Shown: piece by piece, positions 3,562-50,726 of the stretch
How positions within the stretch are numbered: the stretch's first letter is position 1
Layout: each line of letters starts with the position of its first letter
Assembly: GCA_044228585.1 (NCBI GenBank)
Contig: JBGAUP010000001.1
Span: 5,855-69,854, forward strand
DNA from: Runella sp.
Lineage (GTDB): Bacteria; Bacteroidota; Bacteroidia; Cytophagales; Spirosomataceae
Reading direction: 5' to 3'
DNA length: 64,000 nt
The notes under the pieces: model-generated
What the model saw: only the letters and a program-made list of their open reading frames with translations
Databases searched by the model: none
Told to the model about the DNA's origin: nothing
Position numbers and translations under genes: made by a program

Positions 3562-6248
3562 ATGCTTTCTTCTATTTTTCTTACTTTAGTTTTTTTTCCG
3601 TTCCTACTTACAGCCCAAGTTCGTACTGTCAAAACACTGCAAGTACCCAGCCGAACGGAGTTTTGTAAAATAGATACTACGGGTGGCTACTCTGTGCTGC
3701 CCAGCGGACGGCGTGTCACCCCTGCGGGTACGGTGGTACGCATCACCAACGACCCCTTCGGACTGGCCGTTAGTCCCAATGGACAACACATAGTAGCACT
3801 TCACAGTGGTGTGCTATCGCTGATACCCGCCGAAAAACCTTCACAAGTTGTCAGAATCCCCAGTTATGACAAACAAATCCCCGACCCGCTACAAGGAGCT
3901 TCGTTTTTGGGCGCGGTTTTCTCCTCAGATTCCAAAAAGGTCTATTTGAGTGGTGGAGATAAAGGCACTGTCGTGGTTTTTGACGTAGAAAAACAAATAA
4001 AAACCACCGAAGTATCATTGAATCATCCTGTTGATGGGCAAAATTTTGAAGAAAGTTTTACTTCCGACATTCTCCTAAATCCAACCAAAAACGAATTACT
4101 CGCCCTCGACCGCGCCCATTTTCGCTTGGTCAGGATTGATTTAAACACTCAAAAAATTACGGCTTCTATTCCCGTAGGTCGTCAGCCCTTTGGGCTTACG
4201 CTGAGTCCTGATAACAAATATGCTTTTGTAGCCAATGTGGGTTTGTACGAATACCCGCTTGTGCCGGGCGTTACGCCCAAAAACAAAGATACCCTCATGC
4301 TCAAATTTCCCCCTTACGGAACATTTACTAAAGAATCAGTTGAAGGCGTAGAAGTAGAGGGCCGTAAAATCCCAGGATTGGGAAGCCCACTCGCCCCCGA
4401 GGCCATGAGCGTATGGATGATTGACTTGAGTAACAACAAAGTCGCGGGCAAATTTAAAACGGGCCACCAAATTGGAGAAATGATAGAAGAAGCCGAAGTG
4501 GTGGGTGGTGCGAGTCCCAATTCGGTGGTGGTAAGCAAACAATTTGCCTATGTTTCCAATGCCACCAACGACAATATATCGGTGATAGATTATAAAACAC
4601 GCAAAATCGTTGGACATATTCCGCTCAAAGTTCATCCCCAGCATTGACAAATACCAGGCTTAATGCCTTCGGGATGTCCTCACTAAATATTTGCGCAAAC
4701 GCTCTACGTAGCTTTATTGGGTTTCAACGCAGTGGCTGTGGTGGACTTGCCTACGCGCCGCGTCAAAGGATTGATACCTACGGGCTGGGGGCCTACCAAG
4801 GTCAAACTTTCGCCCGATGAAAAACATTTGTACGTGGTATCAGCACGGGGTTTGGGTGCGGGCCAAAATGGAGGGGCAGGCTTTGTAAAACCTGCACGCG
4901 GTACGTATATTGGTGATATTCAGATGGGAACATTTCAGAAAATAGCCGTTCCAAACTCGTTTGAATTACAGAACTTTACCAAACAAGTGTTAAACAATAC
5001 CTTTGAAACACTTGCCATCACGGACGACGGCAAGAATCCATTGCCTGCGTTGCCCAACTTACGCAAGAGTCCTATTAAGTACATTGTATATGTGACCAAA
5101 GAAAACCGCACCTACGACGAAGTATTGGGACAACTTTCTAATGGAGATGCCTCCCTTGCTCGGTATGGCACTAACGTAACTATTACGACCAAAATATTGA
5201 TGTGATGCCCAATCACCAGCGTATCGCCAAACAGTTTGCGTATTCTGATAATTTTTACTGTGATTCTGATGCTTCTATTCATGGACATCATTGGATGATG
5301 GGCGTGATTCCTAATGAATGGGTGGAAGCTAATTCCAACCATTCCAGTACTTTTAACGCTTTCTCAAAAGCCCCAGGCCGACGTTTCCCTAAGGCAACGG
5401 GTGCTATTGACCCCGAAGATTACAATGAAATTGGGGGGCTGTGGGAAGCTTTGGAGCGTAAAAAAATTCCGTTTTATAATTTTGGGGAAGGCAACGAGTT
5501 TGCAGGTGTGGCCGAAGAATGGAACCATTTCGAGTTTGGAGCGCGGCAGCCCGTAGTTTTTCCGTTACAAAAAGCCGTTTTTGACCGTACTTCACGTAAC
5601 TACGCTGGTTTTGACATGAACATTCCCGATTGGCTTCGTATGGACCAATTTGAAAAAGAGTTTACGGAGAAATGGCTGACCCCCAAAAAAGAAGTTCCCC
5701 GTTTGATTGCTCTTCAACTTCCCAACGATCATGGCGCGGGTGTTCGCCCCGAAGCGGGCTATCCGTATCCTCATTCTTTTATGGCTGACAATGATATTTC
5801 GCTGGGACGATTGCTACAATTTCTTTCGCATACGCCTTACTGGAAAAATATGCTTGTGGTGATTACAGAAGACGACCCCCAAGGCGGCGTTGACCACATA
5901 GATGCGCACCGCTCAGTATTGATGATGGCAGGGCCGTACGTTAAGCGCGGACACGTCTCGCATACCCACGCCAATTTTGGCTCTATTTTGAAAGTAATTT
6001 ACAATACATTGGGCGTACCCTACGTCAATCAGTACGATGCGACGGCTTCGTTGTTACAAGATTTTTTCACGGACAAACCCGATTTTACGCCTTACCAGTA
6101 CGTTATCCCAGATACCCAGGTTTTTGATGTGAACAAGGCCATGGATATCTACAAAAAAATGTATAATTGGAAAACGACTCAACCCAGCCCCAAAATGGAT
6201 GACCCCAACGAACAACGAAAAGAACATTATAGACAACAGAACAATTAA
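3562..6248 (+). pseudogene. secreted beta-propeller (YVTN/YncE-like) fused to phosphoesterase (phospholipase C / AcpA family), disrupted
   Basis: Three same-strand ORFs (3562-4647, 4717-5205, 5202-6248) read as one protein. It has a signal peptide, propeller-blade motifs (LSPDNKYAFVANVG, FAYVSNATNDNISVID, LSPDEKHLYVVSARG), then phosphoesterase motifs (VTKENRTYDEVLG, DSDASIHGHHW, ITEDDPQGGVDHIDAHRS). The first two ORFs are in the SAME frame, separated by in-frame TGA (4645-4647) and TAA (4684-4686). The third is offset by one nt at the A4 run 5191-5194. Confidence 0.65.
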
Positions 6249-11454: not shown

Positions 11455-12399
11455 TTATTTCTCCAACAACATAGCTCCGTAAGAATAACCTCCTCCAAAA
11501 ACAGTAATGACAATTCGCTGACCTTTTTGAAACTTAGGCCAATTTTCGGACAAGCCAATGGCACACCCAGCACAGCCCGTATTGCCGAGGTATTGGATAT
11601 TGGAAAGTAATTTTTCTTCGGGTAGCCCCAACGTATTCATTACGTTCATACTAATTCGTAGATTGGCTTGGTGGGGCAATACATAATCTACGTCTTCTAC
11701 GCTCAATCCACACCTTTCAAGTACTTGTAAACTTGCCTTTGGCATGTAAGTACAGGCATTGATAAACACATCGCGACCAAAAGGCATAATGACACCTCGC
11801 TCGTTGGGGCGCAGTACCACCGCTTCCGTGGCTTTTCCGCTCGTGGCTGCTCCGCCAGTCAATAAAGCACGAATTTGTAAATCTCCCTTGCTGATACGCT
11901 CTTTGGAAATAAGCATGGCTGCCGCTCCGTCGCCCCACAAATGTCCTGATACAGTGTCGGTTTCGTTGTAATAACCCGTGTTGTGTTCTGAAGTAATGAC
12001 CAAGGCTTTGGTCGCTTTATTCATGGCAAAATAGCCTTCTACTACTTCAATGGCGTTAAGTAAAGAAGAACAGGCCGAAGAAATGGTAACGACAGGAATG
12101 TCGGGAATTTCTAAATAATGTTGTACGGCATGCCCCAAGGTGACGATGGCATCGTAAGCGGTGTAGGTAGCACCTACTATCAAATCTACTTCGTTGATGT
12201 CAACTTGAATTTTATCTAACAGTGCCTTTACGGCTTCTACTCCCATCGTATGCGAGTTTTCGGCGGAGGCTGCCTTGCGTCGAAGTTGAATACCCGTGCG
12301 CTGTACAATCCATTCGTCGGACAGGCCATTGAGTTTAGTAAAATGTTCGTTATCAACTACTTGTTCGGGCAAGTAGTGACCGACCTGATGAAGAAACAT
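11455..12399 (-). CDS. 3-oxoacyl-ACP synthase III-like (FabH/KAS III family)
   Basis: Catalytic Cys context ISSACSS, His in LPHQANL, Asn in YLGNTGCAG. 314 aa. Confidence 0.85.
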   Translation of the reverse strand: MFLHQVGHYLPEQVVDNEHFTKLNGLSDEWIVQRTGIQLRRKAASAENSHTMGVEAVKALLDKIQVDINEVDLIVGATYTAYDAIVTLGHAVQHYLEIPDIPVVTISSACSSLLNAIEVVEGYFAMNKATKALVITSEHNTGYYNETDTVSGHLWGDGAAAMLISKERISKGDLQIRALLTGGAATSGKATEAVVLRPNERGVIMPFGRDVFINACTYMPKASLQVLERCGLSVEDVDYVLPHQANLRISMNVMNTLGLPEEKLLSNIQYLGNTGCAGCAIGLSENWPKFQKGQRIVITVFGGGYSYGAMLLEK

Positions 12400-12651: not shown

Positions 12652-13608
12652 ATGCAGCCTACCAAATTATTAGTTGTTGTTCCTTGCTATAACGAAGAAG
12701 AAATTCTCGCCAAAACCCACTATACGCTACAAGCGTACCGTGGCCGCTTGGTGGCCGAAGGGGCGATTTCTCCCGAGAGTCGGCTGTGTTTTGTAAATGA
12801 CGGTAGTCGTGACCGAACTTGGCAATTGATTGACGAAATTTGCCAAAAAGACCCTTATAGTATCGGGGTGAAACTTTCCCGTAATTTTGGCCATCAAAGT
12901 GCTATTTTGGCAGGGCTGATGCATCATTCTGCCGATTTTGATTGTTTTGTAACCATAGATGCCGATTTGCAGGACGATGTAGAGGCCATTGGGCAGATGA
13001 TTGAGCAACATCGCCGTGGCGCCATGGTTGTGTATGGAGTGCGCGACGACCGCAGCAGTGATACTTGGTTTAAACGCACCACCGCCGAATCTTTCTATAA
13101 AATGATGCGTTGGATGGGCGTACCTGTGGTGTTTAATCATGCTGATTTTCGTTTAATGGATCGGCGTATTTTGGAAGAATTTGCCAACTTCAAAGAAGTA
13201 AATCTGTTTTTGCGGGGTATTATTCCCTTGATTGGCTTTCGTTCCGAAAAAGTTTTTTACAAACGTTTTGAGCGCGAAGCGGGTGAAACCAAATACCCAC
13301 TCCAAAAAATGCTGCTTTTTGCTTGGAACGGGGTTACTTCGTTCAGTACGTTTCCGATGCGCTTGGTTCTTTACTTCGGAGTTCTCAATTTTCTCATTGC
13401 CATTGTCATCGGGTTTTATATCGGCATTTCTTATTTGTTTGGTAGTACCGTAGCAGGTTGGACTTCGATTGTACTCCCTATGACGTTTTTTAGCGGAGCC
13501 AATATGATTGCTATTGGGTTGATTGGAGAATACGTTGGTAAGATTTATGAAGAAGTAAAGGGACGGCCAAGGTATATTATTGAATCAGTAGTGAGGAGTG
13601 AGGAGTGA
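12652..13608 (+). CDS. GT2 polyprenyl-phosphate glycosyltransferase (GtrB/ArnC/DPM1-like)
   Basis: VVVPCYNEE, VNDGSRDRT, SRNFGHQSA, IDADLQDD, plus two C-terminal TM helices. Confidence 0.85.
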   Translation: MQPTKLLVVVPCYNEEEILAKTHYTLQAYRGRLVAEGAISPESRLCFVNDGSRDRTWQLIDEICQKDPYSIGVKLSRNFGHQSAILAGLMHHSADFDCFVTIDADLQDDVEAIGQMIEQHRRGAMVVYGVRDDRSSDTWFKRTTAESFYKMMRWMGVPVVFNHADFRLMDRRILEEFANFKEVNLFLRGIIPLIGFRSEKVFYKRFEREAGETKYPLQKMLLFAWNGVTSFSTFPMRLVLYFGVLNFLIAIVIGFYIGISYLFGSTVAGWTSIVLPMTFFSGANMIAIGLIGEYVGKIYEEVKGRPRYIIESVVRSEE

Positions 13609-13614
13609 GAAAGG
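13587..13614. repeat. heptamer array, GTGANNA family (3-4 units)
   Basis: gtgagga gtgagga gtgagaa (13591-13611). It spans the last codons (VVRSEE) and the TGA stop (13606-13608) of the GT2 gene. Confidence 0.6.
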
Positions 13615-13656
13615 AGTTTATGACACGCAATTAACCATTCACGGATAACAGAAGCA

Positions 13657-25662: not shown

Positions 25663-27042
25663 ATGAAAAAATCGCTTTCTTTGCCCCGTTTACTTTTTAC
25701 CCTTTTCACTTTCACCTTTACCTTTACCCTTTTCACTTCATCCACCCTTTCAGCCCAATACCCCATCCTTCCCGAACGGGAACGTGCTCGTGTAGTAGAT
25801 GAAATTTTAGAAGACCGTTTCACCAACCTTTTGCCTCAGCTTATGCGTCGTGAAGGGGTTGATATGTGGATTATCATCTCCCGCGAATACAACGAAGATC
25901 CCGTGATGCGTACCATGCTTCCCAGCACTTGGTTGTCGGCACGAAGACGGACAATTATGATGTTTTACGACGCAGGTGGGGCAAAACCGCTCGAAAAACT
26001 CGCCATTGCTCGCTACGACGTAGGAAATTTGCTCAAGGGAGAGTGGGATATCAATGTTCAACCTAATCAGTGGTTGGCATTGTCTAAAGTAATTGAAGAG
26101 CGTAACCCCAAAAAAATTGCGCTTAATTTCTCCAAAGATTACGGCCACGCTGACGGACTCACTTACACCGAACACAAGGAGTTTATGAGTGTGCTGCCCG
26201 AAAAACAAAAAGCGAAGATTGTCTCTGCCGACCGTTTGGCGGTGGCGTGGTTAGAAACCCGCAGTGAAAAAGAAGCGGCTATTTATCCCATGATTTGCCG
26301 TATTTCGCACGATATTATCCAAGAGGCATTTTCCGAAAAAGTAATTCACCCAGGCGTTACTACCACCGACGACGTGGTGTGGTGGATGCGCCAACGTGTT
26401 ACCGATTTAGGGTTAGAAACATGGTTTCATCCTACGGTGGACATTCAGCGCTTCGACCCTGAAAACTTTGATCATTTGCGCACTTTCTCCAAACGCCCTG
26501 CTAAGCAAGTCATTATGCCAGGGGATTTGCTTCACTGTGATTTTGGCATTACGTATTTGCGCCTCAACACCGACCAACAGCAAAATGCCTATGTATTGCG
26601 CCCCGGAGAAAGTGAAGTACCCGATTTTCTGAAAAAGGCTTTGGCCCAAGGCAATCGCCTGCAAGATATTCTTACTGAAAAATTTAAAACGGGTACGACA
26701 GGCAACAAGATGCTGTTGGAGGCACTTGAACAAGCTAAGAAAGAAGGGATTACGGGGAGTATCTACTCTCACCCCATTGGCGTACACGGCCACGCGGCAG
26801 GCCCGACGATTGGCATGTGGGACCAACAGCAGGGAGTAGCAGGGCCAGGCGACTATCCTTTGTTTCCCAATACGGCTTACTCGATTGAATTAAATGCCGC
26901 TGTCGAAATAGCCGAATGGAAGAAAACCATTCGTATTATGCTCGAAGAAGATGGCTATTACACGGCAGATGGCTTTCATTACTTAGATGGACGCCAAAAA
27001 GAGATTTTTACCATTCCTCGGAATTTGGAGAAAGTAAAATAA
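25663..27042 (+). CDS. M24 family metallopeptidase (Xaa-Pro aminopeptidase-like), secreted
   Basis: Signal peptide, then a creatinase/prolidase-like N-domain and a pita-bread domain (LLHCDFG, HPIGVHGHAAGP, SIELN..MLEED). Confidence 0.8.
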   Translation: MKKSLSLPRLLFTLFTFTFTFTLFTSSTLSAQYPILPERERARVVDEILEDRFTNLLPQLMRREGVDMWIIISREYNEDPVMRTMLPSTWLSARRRTIMMFYDAGGAKPLEKLAIARYDVGNLLKGEWDINVQPNQWLALSKVIEERNPKKIALNFSKDYGHADGLTYTEHKEFMSVLPEKQKAKIVSADRLAVAWLETRSEKEAAIYPMICRISHDIIQEAFSEKVIHPGVTTTDDVVWWMRQRVTDLGLETWFHPTVDIQRFDPENFDHLRTFSKRPAKQVIMPGDLLHCDFGITYLRLNTDQQQNAYVLRPGESEVPDFLKKALAQGNRLQDILTEKFKTGTTGNKMLLEALEQAKKEGITGSIYSHPIGVHGHAAGPTIGMWDQQQGVAGPGDYPLFPNTAYSIELNAAVEIAEWKKTIRIMLEEDGYYTADGFHYLDGRQKEIFTIPRNLEKVK

Positions 27043-33023: not shown

Positions 33024-33103
33024 AGTCCACAGTCTTATAGGTATAGATAATATCTTGACTGTGGGCGGCAAACTGTGGGCTATGGACTGCCAACTTTTGA
33101 CTA
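33024..33103. repeat. heptamer array, NNGACTG family, with an inverted left arm
   Basis: agtccacagtc (33024-33034) is inverted relative to gactgtgggcg (33057-33067). Units ttgactg tgggcgg caaactg tgggcta tggactg ccaactt ttgacta (33055-33103). Located just after the apbC stop. Confidence 0.6.
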
Positions 33104-33145
33104 TAAACCCAAAAAAACGCATATTAGCGGATTAATTCATAAGAA

Positions 33146-35602: not shown

Positions 35603-38600
35603 TCAACGCCCACAAATCTCCCGAAAATCACAGTATTGGCAAGCTGTAAGATGGTCGGTTTTACGGAAAGGTTCATCAGGATTAAGTAGGGTGTCAACAA
35701 TAAAACGTTGAAGGTATTTTTCGGAATTTACCACGTATGATTCGGCATCCGAGTTTTCGTCAAAACGCAGGGGATTGTTAACAAAACCTTTTTTGATGTT
35801 TCGTAAAGAATAAAAACCTGACGTTACTTCGTAGTTGTCTAAATGAAATTCTCGACCTCGCAGGCGGAGGCCACGTTCGCGTAGCATTTGTTTGTAAATT
35901 AAATACTGGTACAGCCACAACTGCCTGATTTTCTCATGGTTGGAGTTGTTTCCTGAAGTCATAATACCCTCCAACTTTTCGGGGGTTACTTTGGGGAGCT
36001 GTTCTATTTTTCCCGTTTTGTAGTCGGCTACGCGAATCGTATTGTCCAATAATTCTACACGATCAATTTTACCAGCTATTTTTACCATCAACACTTCATT
36101 CCCCAGTGGCACGGCTACGGTAGCCGTTAGTTTTTGCTCGGTAGCCAATACGACCAATCCATCGTTGCGCTTGTGTTGTTCTTGCAGAAAATCCACGACC
36201 GTTTGTTCCGCGACTTGGTACAACAAACGGTTGATGCCTGAATCGGCATCGTAACCTCTAAACATCTTTTCAAATTCTTCGCGGAGAATTACCTTCACTT
36301 GCTCATCGCTAATGGGTTTGTTTTCCATTAAATACTCAATATCAATGCGTTCGAGTACTTTGTGAATCCATGAGCCAAAATCAGCGGCTCCCATGCGCTC
36401 TTCTACTTCCTCGTCTTCGGCAACCCCTGCCACCCGACTAAAATAGTATTGAAGCGAGCATTTTAAATATTGGTTCAGGTGGGTAGCATACAAACCGTCT
36501 TTGGTTAATATTCCCCGCAAAAAATCTAAGATTTCGGGTGTTTTGGGTACTGTCCAATCGCTTATGGAGGCGTGTTTTTGGTTTAGAGTTTCGGGTTTGG
36601 CGTTTACTGTTTCGGGTTTACTATTTACAGTTTCGAGCTGACTGTTGACTGTTGACTGTTGACTGCTAACCGTGGACTGTGGACTGCCAACTGCCGACTG
36701 CTGACTCTCCTGAAACATGACTACGTGTTCCGTAAACTGGATATTTCCGTTTGATTTCGGGACAAGTTCGTGTTCTAATTGTAAAATAAAGCGACTTTTT
36801 TCTCCGCCGTTGTAAGTGTTTGGGTCGGTGACATAAACGAGGTGAACTTCGTGGGCGCGTTGGAGCAAGCGATAAAAATGGTACGACATCACCGCGTTTT
36901 GGTCACTATATACGGGCAAACCCGCTTCGCGGGCTATGTCCCACGGAATGAGCGAGTTTTGACGTTTGGTACTTGGAAAAACTCCTTCATTCATCGAAAG
37001 AATTATGACACGCTCGAAATCCAAAGCGCGGGTTTCGAGCATCCCGATGATTTGTAACGGGCTGACGGGTTCGCCACTAAAAGGAATGCGCGTTTGGCGG
37101 ATAAGCTCGTACAAAAACGCCTTGAAAGTGCGAAGATTGAGTTTTTCGATGTGTTCGTTGCTCAGGGTAGTTTCGAGTTGTTTGAGCAGGGTATAAAACA
37201 GATACAAATACTCGGTTTCAATGGCATTTTGGGTATCTTTATATACTTCTCGCAACAAGTCAATGAGTTGGTAAAGCACCTTGATAACCGAGTGTGGATG
37301 GTCGTCCCAACGGGTAAAAAGGGTTTTGAAAAGGGGGTGATTCTCGCCCCACTCAAACAGCTGTTTTGGATCAAGATAGACGAGATTGCGTTGCTGTATT
37401 TCTCGAATGGTAGTTTGAATAATACTGGACGCCGTGCTGTCGCGGTGTTGTAATTCCAAAAATTCATATCGTCGAATGAAGGGATGGTTCAACACTTTTT
37501 GAACCGTTCGGTGGTTGAACTTAGGAATTTTTAGGTTACGTCCGTCTTTGGCGCGAAACTCTGCCATCGTAAACTGGAGTTCAAATAAAGAGTCAACCAG
37601 CGTGAATAACAGTGAATTACGGAGGGTAAGCCCCATGGTTACGTTCAAATCCGTGATGGCTTCATCCAAGCCATTGAGCATGGGTACGAGCAAATTTTCG
37701 TCGGCCAGTACAATACCTACGGGGCGTTTTTCGGTACCGCCTTGCCCTTCATCGCACCATTGGCGATAAAGTTCACCCGCTACTTTGGCTTGCATAGAGG
37801 CATTAGGAACAGCATACACGTGAATATCTTTGGGGGTGTCCAGCAAATGATTTTCAGTCCATTTCCACTCGCCCGACCAAGCGGCATCGCGGTATTTGCG
37901 CAAGGATTTTCCGCCTTCGGCCAGCGGGTTTTCGCGCATGTAATAAAAATCACTATCCCATAGAATTTCGGCGCATTTGGCCTTGATAAGGGTTTTGATA
38001 ATGGTTTCTTCGGCCAATGTTAGCGCATTAAAACCAATGAAATAGTAGTGAGTAGTGAGGGGTGAGGAGTGGGGAGGTGTATCTTCTGCCGATTGCTGAT
38101 TGCCGATTGCCGATTGCTGATTGCCGATTGCCGACTGCCGACTGTCAACTGCCGACTGTGGACTGTTAAGCAAAAGCTCAAACGCATTTTCGGCCAAAGT
38201 CCGATAGGCCATACCACGATAGGCGCGGTGCCGAGATTGAAGGTCTTCCCTAAAAAGCCGATATACTTCTCGTAGATTGGCGAATAGTTCAAAATATCCT
38301 TTGAGGCGTTCGGAGTCGGTGGTCATTCGACTTTTGGGCCAGTCAATTTGCCAGCGTTCAATCGCTTTGGCTTCGGTGATATAGTTGAAAAGATAATCAG
38401 GGTCAATCAGGTACTGGTCAATTTGGTCAATATCACGCAACAGCATCGTTCCCCACTGCAAATAGCGGTCGAAAGTGATGTTTTTATCCACTTTTTTGAA
38501 GATGTCGTATAACTCAAATAGTAAACTAACATTATCCGAAATTTCCACTTGGCATCTTTGGGCTACAAAATCATCAATAGCCACTACTTCAGGCGCTAAA

Positions 38601-38752
38601 AAAGGGCGGTCAGCGCACTGCGCTAAGGCTCGCTTAAAGAAATAACCAGCGCGTCGAGTAGGGAGAACAATACATAGTTTGTCAAGTGATTGAAGGTCTG
38701 GATATTTATCAAAAATATACCGTGCCGATTTTTCTAAGAATGACTCAAGCAT
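35603..38752 (-). CDS. PD-(D/E)XK nuclease family protein, AddB/RecB-exonuclease-like, with two repeat-encoded inserts
   Basis: 1049 aa. The C-terminal nuclease core has RVADYKTGK and a Cys cluster (...TACQYCDFREICGR). Two low-complexity segments are encoded by heptamer arrays. Confidence 0.75.
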   Translation of the reverse strand: MLESFLEKSARYIFDKYPDLQSLDKLCIVLPTRRAGYFFKRALAQCADRPFLAPEVVAIDDFVAQRCQVEISDNVSLLFELYDIFKKVDKNITFDRYLQWGTMLLRDIDQIDQYLIDPDYLFNYITEAKAIERWQIDWPKSRMTTDSERLKGYFELFANLREVYRLFREDLQSRHRAYRGMAYRTLAENAFELLLNSPQSAVDSRQSAIGNQQSAIGNQQSAEDTPPHSSPLTTHYYFIGFNALTLAEETIIKTLIKAKCAEILWDSDFYYMRENPLAEGGKSLRKYRDAAWSGEWKWTENHLLDTPKDIHVYAVPNASMQAKVAGELYRQWCDEGQGGTEKRPVGIVLADENLLVPMLNGLDEAITDLNVTMGLTLRNSLLFTLVDSLFELQFTMAEFRAKDGRNLKIPKFNHRTVQKVLNHPFIRRYEFLELQHRDSTASSIIQTTIREIQQRNLVYLDPKQLFEWGENHPLFKTLFTRWDDHPHSVIKVLYQLIDLLREVYKDTQNAIETEYLYLFYTLLKQLETTLSNEHIEKLNLRTFKAFLYELIRQTRIPFSGEPVSPLQIIGMLETRALDFERVIILSMNEGVFPSTKRQNSLIPWDIAREAGLPVYSDQNAVMSYHFYRLLQRAHEVHLVYVTDPNTYNGGEKSRFILQLEHELVPKSNGNIQFTEHVVMFQESQQSAVGSPQSTVSSQQSTVNSQLETVNSKPETVNAKPETLNQKHASISDWTVPKTPEILDFLRGILTKDGLYATHLNQYLKCSLQYYFSRVAGVAEDEEVEERMGAADFGSWIHKVLERIDIEYLMENKPISDEQVKVILREEFEKMFRGYDADSGINRLLYQVAEQTVVDFLQEQHKRNDGLVVLATEQKLTATVAVPLGNEVLMVKIAGKIDRVELLDNTIRVADYKTGKIEQLPKVTPEKLEGIMTSGNNSNHEKIRQLWLYQYLIYKQMLRERGLRLRGREFHLDNYEVTSGFYSLRNIKKGFVNNPLRFDENSDAESYVVNSEKYLQRFIVDTLLNPDEPFRKTDHLTACQYCDFREICGR
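36581..36707. repeat. heptamer tandem array inside the CDS: GTTTNNN x8 then NNGACTG x10
   Basis: gtttaga gtttcgg gtttggc gtttact gtttcgg gtttact atttaca gtttcga (36581-36636). Then ctgactg ttgactg ttgactg ttgactg ctaaccg tggactg tggactg ccaactg ccgactg ctgactc (36638-36707). On the coding strand, 36641-36665 reads CAGT(CAACAGT)3. Confidence 0.85.
38042..38169. repeat. heptamer tandem arrays inside the CDS: GTGANNA x5 then NNGAYTG-family x12
   Basis: aatagta gtgagta gtgaggg gtgagga gtgggga (38042-38076). Then ctgccga ttgctga ttgccga ttgccga ttgctga ttgccga ttgccga ctgccga ctgtcaa ctgccga ctgtgga ctgttaa (38086-38169, 84 nt). This includes a perfect 21-nt duplication at 38093-38134. Confidence 0.85.
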
Positions 38753-45502: not shown

Positions 45503-48500
45503 ATGGCTTCACTATCAACAACCAGCATTCAGCGACCCGTATTGGCAGTGGTAATGTCGCTGATTATCATCATTTTTGGTCTTATTGGGTTTTCTTATTT
45601 GGGTGTACGTGAGTATCCGAGTGTTGACCCACCCGTTATCAACGTCATGACTAACTATACGGGGGCCAATGCCGAAATCATCGAATCACAAATTACGGAA
45701 CCCTTGGAAGAGTCTATCAACGGGATTTCGGGAATAAAGACCCTCTCGTCGGCCAGTCGCGATGGTCGAAGTGTCATTACGGTTGAATTTGATTTAGGAG
45801 TAGATTTAGAAACCGCCGCTAACGACGTTCGCGACCGGGTTTCGCGTTCGTTGGGGCTATTGCCGCGCGATATTGACCCACCGATTGTCTCTAAAGCAGA
45901 TGCCGATTCCAACCCCATTTTCTTCATGAATGTAAAAAGTGGGCGCTCGTTACTCGAACTGACCGATATTGTAGAACGACAAGTAAAAGAGCGCTTGCAG
46001 ACGATTCCAGGGGTGAGTTCGATTCAAATATGGGGCGAGAAACGCTATGCAATGCGTATGTGGATTGACCCACTCAAATTGGCTTCGTATCGGCTTACGG
46101 CCATTGATGTTCTCAATGCACTTACGCGTCAAAACATTGAACTTCCTTCGGGGACCATCGAGGGGGCTACCACCGAACTTACCGTAAGAACGCTGGGGCG
46201 ATTGACTACTGCGGAAGAATTTAACAACTTGATCATCAAGGAAGAATCCGATCGCGTAGTGAAGTTTAAGGATGTAGGCCGCGCCGAATTAGCCCCTGAA
46301 AACGAACGTACACTGATGCGCCGTGATGGGGTTCCGATGGTGGGAGTGGCGGTAGTACCTCAGCCTGGAGCTAACCAGATTGCGATTGTGGACGAAGTGT
46401 ATAAGCGTTTTGAGCAAATCAAAAAAGACTTGCCCGCTGATATTACTCCCGCAATAGGTTTTGACTATACACGATCGGTACGCCGCTCCATTGAAGAAGT
46501 AGAAGAAACCATCATTACAGCCTTTATTTTGGTGGCATTGATTATCTTCATCTTTTTGCGCGACTGGCGCAGTACCATTATTCCGCTCACGGCGATTCCT
46601 GTATCGTTGGTAGGTACGTTTTTCTTAATGTACGTGATGGGCTTCTCTATCAACGTTTTAACACTCCTTGGGATTGTACTTTCGATTGGTTTGGTGGTGG
46701 ACGATGCCATTGTGGTATTAGAAAATATTTATACCAAAATTGAGGAAGGGATGGCACCCCGTAAAGCTGCGATTGAGGGGTCAAAAGAAATTTATTTTGC
46801 GATTATATCCACTACAGTTACGTTGGCGGCGGTGTTTTTGCCCATTATTTTCTTACAGGGGGTTACTGGGCGTCTGTTCCGCGAGTTTGGGATTGTGGTA
46901 GCGGGGTCGGTAATTATTTCAGCCTTTGTATCGCTGACACTTACTCCCATGCTCAGCTCTAAATTGTTGAAAACACGCCATAAACAGCCGTGGCTATACC
47001 GAGTGACAGAGCCCTTTTTTAAATGGCTCAACAACGCCTACGAGTCGTCTTTGGCAGGTTTTATGCAAGTACGCTGGTTGGCGTGGGTACTCATGGCAGG
47101 GTTTATCGGGATTATTTACGCGCTCTTTAAATACGATGCTATTCCTTCTGAATTGGCTCCGATGGAAGATCGCCGCGGTTTTAGGGTATCGCTGACGATG
47201 CAGGAAGGGGCTACGTTTGATTTCACCGACCGTTATTTGCAAGATTTTGCTAAGGTGGTGGTAGATGAAGTAAAAGTCAATGAACGCGATGCGCTTATCA
47301 CCATTACAGCCCCAGGCTTTTCGACCAACGCCACCAATACGGGTTTTGTGCGCGTGGTACTGAGTGAGCCAGAGATGCGTCAGCGTTCACAAATGCAAAT
47401 TGCGGATGCTGTGCAAGCAAAAGTAAAGAAAATCTCGGGTGCTAAATCGTTTGTGCTTCAAGACCCTACGATTCAAACAGGCCAACGAGGTGGTAGTAGC
47501 TTCCCCGTATCGTATGTAGTGCAAGCTACCAGTTATGAGAAATTGCGTTCAGTGATTCCAGAATTGATGAAGCGGGTCAACGAAAGCCCGATGTTTGTAG
47601 GTACTGACATCAACCTTAAATTTACTAAACCCGAAATTCGTCTCGAAATTGACCGTGATAAAGCTCAAAACTTAGGCGTTTCAATCCAAGACATTGCCCA
47701 AACGTTACAACTGGGGTTGTCAGGACGTCGTTTTGGCTATTTTTTAATGAACGGAAAACAATACCAAGTGATTGGCCAAATTGACCGACCCGACCGCAAT
47801 GACTTGATGGACTTAAAATCACTGTTTGTCAAAAGTAACCGTGGAGAGCTGATTCAGTTGGACAACTTTGTGAAACTAACCGAGCAAAGTTCACCCCCTC
47901 AATTGTTCCGTTTCAACCGCTCGTCGGCGGCTACAATTACGGCAGGATTGGCCAATGGAGTTACGCTGGGCAAAGCTTTGGAAGAAATGGACAGAATCGC
48001 CAAAGAAGTATTGGACGAAACTTATACCACGGCCTTAGACGGACAGTCGCGGGGTTGAAAGATAGTTCATCGAGCCTTCTTTTTGCGTTCGCCTTGGCTT
48101 TGGTTCTCATTTACTTAATTTTGGCCGCGCAGTTTGAGAGTTTTATGGATCCCGTTATTATCTTACTTACTGTGCCTTTGGCGGTGTGTGGGGCGTTGTT
48201 GTCGTTGTGGGATTTTAGCCAAACCCTCAACGTATTTAGCCAAATTGGTATCATTACCTTGGTGGGTCTTGTGACTAAAAACGGGATTTTGATTGTGGAG
48301 TTTGCCAATCAACGCAAAGAAACGGGGATTAGCAAGATGCAAGCGGTGAAAGAAGCCGCGGCGGCACGTTTCCGCCCTATTGTCATGACGAGTTTGTGTG
48401 CTATTTTGGGGATTTTGCCTATTGCCTTAGCCTTGGGAGCAGGTTCCGAAAGTCGCGTTTCAATGGGTATCTCGGTGGTAGGGGGGTTGTTATTTTCTAC

Positions 48501-48612
48501 CATTCTCACGCTTTATATCATTCCAGCTATTTATTCTTATTTGTCAGCCAATCATAAGCCCAATGCCGACACGAAAGCAGATATGCCCGAGCTGACAGAA
48601 CAAGATGCTTAA
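45503..48612 (+). CDS. efflux RND permease (AcrB/HAE1-like), interrupted by an apparent 1-nt deletion at 48051-48056
   Basis: ORFs 45503-48058 and 48055-48612. Adding one nt in the GGGG/TT run joins ...ALDGQSRG to LKDSSSSLLFAFALALVLIYLILAAQFESF. The typical RND motifs VVDDAIVVLENI and GILIVEFAN are present. Confidence 0.85.
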
Positions 48613-50491: not shown

Positions 50492-50662
50492 ATTTTTTGG
50501 TAGAAATGTACTTAAATACAAAGTAACGAGAAAGGCGAATGAGAAACCAATTTTTACTTTTCATCAATTATTTTTTACTCTTCATGCAACCTTTCCCGTT
50601 GAATTGACATCTTATTCCTGAATTTAGCAGCATGAAAACAAAATCAGCAATCCAATAGTAGG

Positions 50663-50726
50663 CAGTTTGCAGTCGGCAGCAGGCAGTGAGTATTACTGTA
50701 AACTGTGGACTGCAGACTGACAACTT
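50663..50726. repeat. head-to-head heptamer arrays (CAGTNNN x4, spacer, NNNNACT(G) x4)
   Basis: cagtttg cagtcgg cagcagg cagtgag | tattact | then taaactg tggactg cagactg acaactt. Located in the divergent promoter region between the UPF0126 gene and the OM beta-barrel gene. Confidence 0.65.

Follow-up and report, generated by a model that had tools for sequence, protein, structure and literature searches.

Introduction

Heptanucleotides are the commonest class of long simple sequence repeats (SSRs) in many prokaryotes, according to Mrazek et al. 2007 as quoted in PMC4679880 and PMC4692102. SSRs are generally depleted in the middle of genes, a result of Lin and Kussell in the form in which PMC4692102 cites it. 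Heptamers with the unit TAACTGA occur in Beggiatoaceae, Cyanobacteria and five Bacteroidetes, there together with "other heptamer direct repeats" (MacGregor 2015, PMC4679880). These arrays lie mostly immediately upstream of start codons, where translational regulation has been proposed, and the cases inside open reading frames (ORFs) are mostly at protein termini (PMC4679880). The TAACTGA repeats also showed that stop codons leave in-ORF heptamers a single orientation and confine them to places that tolerate them (MacGregor 2015, PMC4679880). The subject of the present analysis is a gene for an AddB-like nuclease that carries in-frame heptamer arrays at two internal sites, here called site 1 and site 2. 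The gene lies in a 64,000-nucleotide stretch of DNA from Runella sp. (contig JBGAUP010000001.1 of assembly GCA_044228585.1, positions 5,855 to 69,854 of the forward strand), and this whole stretch is referred to below as the window. It is likely that the arrays are dispersed heptanucleotide repeats that change at the DNA level, and that selection filters the changes to three-unit steps in permissive loops.

The Runella arrays share with the TAACTGA repeats the ACTG/CAGT core, the limit that stop codons set on orientation, the presence in Bacteroidetes and the breaking of assemblies at arrays. They differ from them in lying mid-gene in inter-domain loops. No TAACTGA tandem (TAACTGATAACTGA, with up to one mismatch) was found in the window, and the ACTG core alone is in common. 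The short tandemly repeated repetitive (STRR) sequences of cyanobacteria have the units CCCCAGT, TTGGTCA and CAACAGT (STRR1-3). Three copies of CAACAGT, presumably the unit of STRR3 in Calothrix, stand at site 1 (36641-36665, minus strand), and most units of the Runella arrays differ from those of STRR1-3. The likeness to the STRR or long simple sequence repeat (LSSR) class lies in the tandem 7-nt units, the many and mostly intergenic loci, the lineage-specific abundance, the several unit families and the copy-number variation between strains. The Runella arrays are members of the heptanucleotide SSR/STRR-LSSR class: tandem arrays of at least three copies, dispersal and copy-number polymorphism are all observed. 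Unlike the cyanobacterial STRRs, they have a Runella host, they are translated at two sites deep in a multi-domain enzyme, and their CAGTNNN units are degenerate.

Tandem repeats inside the ORFs of Borgs have units divisible by three. Borgs are archaeal extrachromosomal elements, and their tandem repeats are reported to be selected to create disordered regions (PMC9879509). The Runella arrays are similar to them, in that fast-evolving in-ORF tandem repeats add low-complexity, presumably disordered segments. In contrast to the Borg repeats, the Runella unit is 7 nt, so that nothing but a three-unit step preserves the frame, and signs of positive selection were not found. Phase-variable SSR loci with tetra- to heptanucleotide repeats are known from Haemophilus and Neisseria (PMC2651432, PMC12721329). 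Such loci have long perfect tracts, usually near the 5' end of genes for surface structures or restriction-modification, and their ON and OFF alleles coexist. The Runella arrays resemble them in a unit not divisible by three, in a position in or near a gene and in a presumably slippage-driven change of copy number. They are unlike them in their interrupted tracts (the longest perfect one is about 20 nt), their mid-gene position, their host, which is a repair nuclease, and the finding of in-frame alleles only. A limited literature search returned no paper on heptamer repeats in Runella. The present case differs from the described ones in the host genus, the degenerate CAGT-core units and the two sites deep within a conserved repair enzyme.

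Organization of the two repeat sites

Site 2 combines two heptamer families (Table 1) and encodes LNSPQSAVDSRQSAIGNQQSAIGNQQSAEDTPPHSSPLTTHYY (aa 195-237) in the frame of the gene. The units of its CAGT-core array on the coding strand are TCGGCAG, TCGGCAA, TCAGCAA, TTGACAG and TCCACAG. The minus strand reads ...NSPQSAVDSRQSAIGNQQSAIGNQQSAEDTPPHSSPLTTHYYF..., in frame within the ORF of 1049 codons. On the plus strand, 38086-38169 contains about 11 heptamers; read as NNGAYTG, 38089-38165 gives 10 exact units plus one that has a single mismatch. The first-pass annotation had listed twelve NNGAYTG units in exactly 84 nt here; the array itself stands, and a count of twelve is reached only with fuzzy units at the edges. 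Tandem Repeats Finder (TRF) gives a period of 7 at 38087-38141 (7.9 copies, 89% matches) and a period of 21 at 38086-38165. A perfect doubling of the 21-mer TTGCTGATTGCCGATTGCCGA at 38093-38134, which encodes QSAIGNQ twice, had also been noticed. It is confirmed, and it is part of a longer perfect run that begins at 38087. This 48-nt stretch, with its A-A-B-A-A-B pattern of units, is the footprint of the latest three-unit duplication of the array. The longest perfectly homogeneous period-7 run measures about 20 nt, which is fewer than three units.

The second family of site 2 has the coding-strand units CCCACTC, CTCACCC and CTCACTA (twice), and it runs into the conserved YYF(I/V)GFNAL strand. 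TRF reports it as AGTGAGG with 4.3 copies and 82% matches. An array at this place had been recorded before as five GTGANNA units at 38042-38076; the array holds, and the clean five do not, since about 4.3 copies are found at 38047-38076 and the register was off by one. The two families had been described as abutting, but nine nucleotides lie between them, so that strictly they are neighbors. They are also not complementary, and the DNA fold of site 2 has an energy of -6.8 kcal/mol with a z-score of +2.1. A role as a hairpin or cruciform, with the two families as complementary arms, was considered and rejected on this single-strand folding result.

Site 1 occupies 36581-36706 (aa 683-724), about 1.4 kb from site 2, and both blocks belong to the same nuclease ORF, as the first reading had it. 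TRF finds a period of 7 at 36637-36706 with 6.9-10 copies. In the R. limosa group (the cluster of P0013), site 1 holds an unrelated 10-aa (30-nt) repeat, VLDTSFVDER, that is present once, twice or three times among orthologs of at least 90% identity. This variation in copy number indicates that the site 1 linker tolerates tandem repeats of other unit sizes.

Table 1. Coordinates of the nuclease gene, its repeat arrays and related arrays in the window
Feature	Position	Strand	Remarks
AddB-like PD-(D/E)XK nuclease gene, host of both repeat sites	35603-38752	-	single intact ORF, 1049 codons
Site 1, AAAC-type heptamer/14-mer array, encodes LETVNSKPETVNAKPETLN	36581-36636	-	in the linker shortly before the nuclease domain
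Site 1, CAGT-core heptamer array, encodes aa 683-706 SQQSAVGSPQSTVSSQQSTVNSQL	36637-36706	-	includes (CAACAGT)x3
Site 2, CTCAC-type heptamer array, encodes aa 226-237 PPHSSPLTTHYY	38042-38076	-	TRF core 38047-38076
Site 2, non-repeat spacer between the two families, 9 nt	38077-38085	-	
Site 2, CAGT-core heptamer array, encodes aa 195-223 LNSPQSAVDSRQSAIGNQQSAIGNQQSAE	38086-38169	-	
Site 2, perfect period-21 run, 48 nt, 2.3 copies of a three-heptamer block, encodes SAIGNQQ-SAIGNQQ-SA	38087-38134	-	lag-21 identity, exact-duplicate test
AGTGAGG x3 (reverse complement of the CTCAC family), 3' end of the GT2 glycosyltransferase ORF (12652-13608)	13584-13616	+	
Degenerate intergenic ACTG/CAGT-family array	33055-33104	+	
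Two inverted CAGT-core arrays, intergenic	50657-50687, 50695-50726	+, -	upstream of a TonB-dependent receptor gene

Comparison of orthologs and alleles

Orthologs of the nuclease in Dyadobacter, Telluribacter, Salmonirosea, Rhabdobacter, Arundinibacter, Tellurirhabdus and Spirosoma are 968-999 aa long and lack an insert at both sites. The proteins of the Runella clade have 977-1095 aa, with inserts at both sites that vary greatly in length and sequence. Peptide themes such as QSAVGS, QSTVSS and PETVNxK recur in many of these inserts.

The closest pair of strains (loci L014 and L015; P0002, P0003) differs by 51 substitutions in 3.1 kb (about 1.6%) and by exactly two indels, one per array, both with a length of 21 nt. 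At site 2, (TCGGCAG)x6 in one allele faces (TCGGCAG)x3 in the other, and at site 1 the indel consists of the three units AAACTCG-AAACAGC-AAACCCT. Frame-preserving three-unit changes of the kind that the first-pass annotation had read from the duplication are what these two alleles display. Among the 51 codon differences, 46 are synonymous and 5 non-synonymous, so the repeat-bearing gene is under purifying selection. The alternative of a pseudogene, raised at the same time, fails on this ratio, on the intact ORF and on the invariance of the four cysteines and the D...DYK residues described below. It had further been proposed to compare absolute array lengths modulo 21. This is uninformative because the edges of the arrays are fuzzy and merge with native codons; the valid test is the step of the indels between alleles.

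Across ten clusters of orthologs (at least 90% identity), all internal indels fall at the two array sites, and the commonest step is 7 aa. In the heptamer-rich clusters, exactly 7 aa (21 nt) is the size of 4 of about 9 internal indels. Several members of the R. limosa group show 7-aa differences at site 1, which are probably non-independent, together with gaps of 9 and 3 aa.

The ORF is intact in all full-length loci (L001-L011 and L013-L015). The nuclease ortholog of the metagenome-assembled genome (MAG) ABC1.30 (L012, 10001-13054) contains at least two frameshifts, for example near 11497, that lie outside the heptamer arrays; they are probably long-read, assembly or sequencing errors or mark an unrelated pseudogene. 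Two independent ENA scaffolds of a related Runella have a run of N exactly at the site 2 array (L136, approximately 3800-3900; L137, approximately 1040-1140). A shorter protein, P0128 (797 aa, from aa 260 to the end of the ortholog), was considered as an OFF allele and rejected, because both of its contigs have the N run at site 2 and the truncation is a scaffold gap and not a frameshift. Other short members of the clusters, on contigs of 1-2 kb, are probably fragments.

Position of the inserts in the predicted structure

An AlphaFold2 model built from 42 orthologs has a mean predicted local distance difference test (pLDDT) score of 75.8. Its only long segments with a pLDDT under 50 are residues 198-231 and 681-731, both of them coil; three shorter loops also fall below this value. 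Confidently modeled elements flank both segments. Around the first, helices at 190-195 and 199-202 come before a strand at 235-239, and around the second, a strand at 671-677 comes before a helix at 739-751. In the model, site 2 is a loop of the N-terminal helicase-like region, and the conserved YYF(I/V)GFNAL strand follows on from it. Site 1 links the helicase-like region to the nuclease domain and stands some 30 residues ahead of the Pfam nuclease domain. The inserts are thus predicted to avoid the conserved core structure. A place in conserved core secondary structure had been named in the first reading as a refuting result; the ortholog alignment, in which the inserts are absent beyond the Runella-like clade, also speaks against it. 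The absence of the inserts in other genera and their low-complexity composition point in the same direction as the low pLDDT.

The AddB-like host protein

The C-terminal PD-(D/E)XK domain of the protein matches PF12705 at aa 756-1047 (E 2e-30). The NCBIfam models for addB match weakly, with 72 bits against a cut-off of 486 for TIGR02786 and 27 against 904 for TIGR02773. A fold search with the AlphaFold model returned the AddB chains 4cej_B and 3u4q_B of B. subtilis AddAB as the top matches in the Protein Data Bank (PDB), with E of approximately 2e-17. These Foldseek matches cover about 1200 aligned columns at a template modeling (TM) score of about 0.4, with a sequence identity of 11-12%, and RecC, AdnA and UvrD come next. 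Judged by these matches, the modeled N-terminal region has a degenerate superfamily 1 (SF1) helicase-like fold. When the 42-sequence alignment was run as a profile against the PDB, nothing matched at E of 0.01 or below, so the relationship to AddB is drawn from the fold search.

Residues D897, D910, Y911 and K912, which form the catalytic D...DYK pattern, are invariant in the 42 orthologs, and so are C765, C1038, C1041 and C1047. The iron-sulfur (Fe-S) pattern of AddB is typically Cys-X(n)-CxxCx5C, with one cysteine before the nuclease core, and it reportedly goes back to Yeeles and colleagues in 2009. As a sequence pattern, the four cysteines of the Runella protein are an AddB-type Fe-S staple and a putative metal site. 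The protein is like B. subtilis AddB (PDB 3U4Q, 4CEJ) in its predicted full-length fold, its RecB-type PD-(D/E)XK C-terminus and its four-cysteine pattern. It is unlike AddB in its two lineage-specific repeat-encoded loops, in the low identity and in its neighborhood, as no AddA/UvrD-like ORF was found among the ORFs scanned in the 64-kb window. The gene is named AddB-like, and not a curated AddB equivalog, because the addB models stay below threshold and no AddA-like gene was found in the window.

The nearest genomes are Runella species (Spirosomataceae, Bacteroidota), with a best protein identity of 84%, and the nuclease protein of the window is a singleton in the database. Neighboring genes encode SusC/SusD proteins, resistance-nodulation-division (RND) pumps and glycosyltransferases, which is consistent with an ordinary Bacteroidota chromosome. 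One AcrB/RND pump gene at 45503-48612 seems to be split into two overlapping ORFs (45503-48058 and 48055-48612), and its ortholog in L014 is a single gene of 1037 aa. A frameshift, an error in sequencing and a pseudogene are all possible reasons for the split.

Heptamer arrays elsewhere in the DNA

The heptamer signal is well above chance. The pattern (CAGTNNN)2CAGT with up to one mismatch has 18 matches in the window against 0.15 expected, and the CTCAC pattern has 5 against 0.03. Strict lag-7 arrays were found neither in shuffled sequences nor at other lags. Outside the nuclease gene, the window contains intergenic arrays and an array at the end of a glycosyltransferase gene (Table 1). For the inverted pair at 50657-50726, an RNA hairpin of -36.7 kcal/mol (z -4.4) is predicted; a promoter and terminator scan around this pair found nothing notable, and no Rfam family was matched anywhere in the window. 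The TGA stop codon of the glycosyltransferase ORF falls within the AGTGAGG array, so that a change in copy number would alter the C-terminus of this protein. T-rich heptamers were seen 12-33 nt inside the 5' ends of annotated ORFs, namely TTTACCC/TTTTCAC at 25696-25738 of the window (M24 peptidase) and CTTTGCC at 21343-21378 of L010. These arrays may belong to leader or signal sequences, or the true start codons may lie downstream of them.

In 389 kb of Runella loci, a period of 7 is by far the commonest tandem-repeat period, with 42 arrays. These are concentrated in the sub-clade of the window and nearly absent from several other Runella loci. The first-pass annotation had suggested that, if such arrays are common, the gene tolerates them well, and both parts are borne out by the dispersal of the families in the genome and by the two insertion-tolerant linkers.

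Among metagenome contigs, (TCGGCAG)x3 occurs in at least 120, and only two homologous pairs are found among 120 of these loci. Most of these contigs have a GC content of 60-70%, at which long stop-free frames are common and ORF assignment is unreliable, so that the contigs serve as counts of arrays and not as a census of coding and intergenic copies. A MutL gene on a metagenome contig of 47% GC (L078, 3862-5757) contains an in-frame CAGT-core array followed by ACTCATC x5 at approximately 5098-5200. Its arrays occupy the linker that joins the DNA_mis_repair domain to the MutL_C domain. The order of the two families is the same as at site 2, and the host is again a DNA-repair protein.

Proposed explanation

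The preferred explanation starts from dispersed STRR/LSSR-type repeats whose units belong to the CAGT-core, CTCAC and AAAC families and which are abundant in one Runella sub-lineage and would have settled in two disordered loops of the AddB-like protein. The TRF period of 7 and the occurrence of the unit families outside genes indicate a DNA-level phenomenon. Array length would then change, with slippage during replication or unequal recombination as the most likely cause. Seven is not a multiple of three, so the gain or loss of one or two units puts the gene out of frame, and purifying selection would remove it. A three-unit change (21 nt, 7 aa) is the smallest whole-unit change that survives, as the allele comparison shows. 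By the alignment and the model, arrays persist only in loops that tolerate a change in length. Heptapeptide repeats such as the doubled QSAIGNQ would arise as a by-product, and the encoded low-complexity segments lengthen two linkers, probably with a near-neutral effect.

Stop codons add a second restriction. A pure heptamer array in frame cycles through three phases of its unit, and it therefore gives one 7-aa repeat whichever phase comes first. Such an array is viable in a gene only if the unit is free of stops in every phase on the coding strand. The antisense frames of both arrays contain stops in all three frames, so the orientation of the arrays in the gene is forced. The MutL arrays of L078 are an independent example and support the explanation.

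Several points weigh against it. Slippage is deduced and not directly observed, and a homogeneous 7-nt tract of fewer than three units is a poor substrate for classical single-unit slippage. The neutrality of the inserts is an assumption, and the low pLDDT could partly stem from the shallow, gapped alignment of 42 sequences. The remaining indels among close orthologs measure 6, 12, 2 and 5+5 aa, and these steps other than 7 aa imply that other or composite events contribute. The recurrence of CAGT-core heptamers across phyla is not explained by slippage alone.

Alternative explanations

The recurrence of paired arrays could instead reflect a compound module, in which a short spacer joins a CAGT-core array to another array that is often inverted, and which is copied or mobilized to new sites and of which site 2 would be a stop-free version. 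The shared order of CAGT array, spacer and CTCA-type array at site 2 and in the MutL linker is in its favor, and so is the inverted pair in the window. Of 127 (TCGGCAG)n arrays in the metagenome contigs, 26 are followed within 150 nt by an inverted array of the ACTG type and four by one of the CTCA type. CTCACTG is also the reverse complement of CAGTGAG, a variant of the CAGT family (L011, L102). This explanation is nevertheless unlikely. Marks of a mobile element (terminal repeats, target-site duplications, an associated transposase) were not seen, and the two arrays of site 2 lack the complementarity of an inverted pair. The units at the same site differ between species. The CTCAC array blends into the native conserved codons of HYYF, which suggests local seeding; ACTCACTACT beside HYYF is a candidate proto-repeat.

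A second possibility is adaptation at the protein level, in which selection keeps heptapeptides (QSAIGNQ, QSTVSS, PETVNxK) as flexible linkers with an adjustable length, to set nuclease reach or partner contacts for instance, and the 21-nt period follows from selection on the peptide. Both sites are linkers between structural elements, where length could matter, and Runella species with 70-86% identity all keep inserts at these two sites. Site 1 also tolerates one to three copies of the VLDTSFVDER repeat. However, the base periodicity is 7 nt and the same units are found in intergenic DNA. Peptide sequence and length are unconserved even among close relatives, and the orthologs of Dyadobacter, Spirosoma and Telluribacter are without the inserts. 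Selection on the peptides is therefore quite improbable as the source of the arrays.

It is very unlikely that the arrays form a contingency locus, in which a change of one or two units would reversibly switch the AddB-like nuclease off and create subpopulations that differ in recombination, repair or phage susceptibility. A 7-nt unit is inherently frame-shifting, array length is polymorphic between strains, a second repair gene (MutL, L078) bears the same arrays, and the two scaffolds with an N gap exactly at site 2 are compatible with heterogeneity of the population. Yet at the level of assemblies no out-of-frame allele was found among the full-length loci, the truncation of P0128 is a scaffold-gap artefact, and the frameshifts of L012 avoid the arrays. 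The tracts are interrupted by variant units, with fewer than three perfect units in a row, and they lie mid-gene and not near the 5' end. The closest pair of strains has 21-nt indels only.

A wider proposal is that CAGT-core arrays, typically with a second and often inverted array beside them, are a discrete, actively propagated cross-phylum module that settles by preference in disordered linkers of repair proteins (AddB-like, MutL), where slippage by one or two units would reversibly abolish repair and give mutator or hyper-recombination switching in environmental Bacteroidota; it is speculative and highly improbable. Finally, an assembly artefact, that is, a copy number and perfect duplication that arose when a short tandem repeat of a metagenome contig was wrongly assembled, would fit the singleton status of the window protein and the N gaps that other assemblies leave at site 2, but it is extremely improbable, given that the perfect period-21 stretch is just 48 nt and thus generally below read length, that the ORF remains in frame, and that independent assemblies of related strains have such arrays at the same sites with 21-nt differences.

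Significance

The reading of DNA-level repeats filtered to three-unit steps reveals neither a new mechanism nor a new system, and the locus is a clear yet ordinary example of a known repeat class. For annotation it carries a warning, since heptamer arrays break short-read assemblies and mimic truncated genes, as the N gaps of L136 and L137 did in producing a called nuclease of 797 aa. For Runella, the analysis documents STRR-like heptamers and provides a natural pair of alleles with 21-nt differences. The locus shows in what way a conserved gene can retain a repeat with a unit length that three does not divide, namely by three-unit steps, one stop-free orientation and placement in loops predicted to be disordered. 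In this way, a repeat that changes at the DNA level would create new heptapeptide low-complexity segments in the protein.

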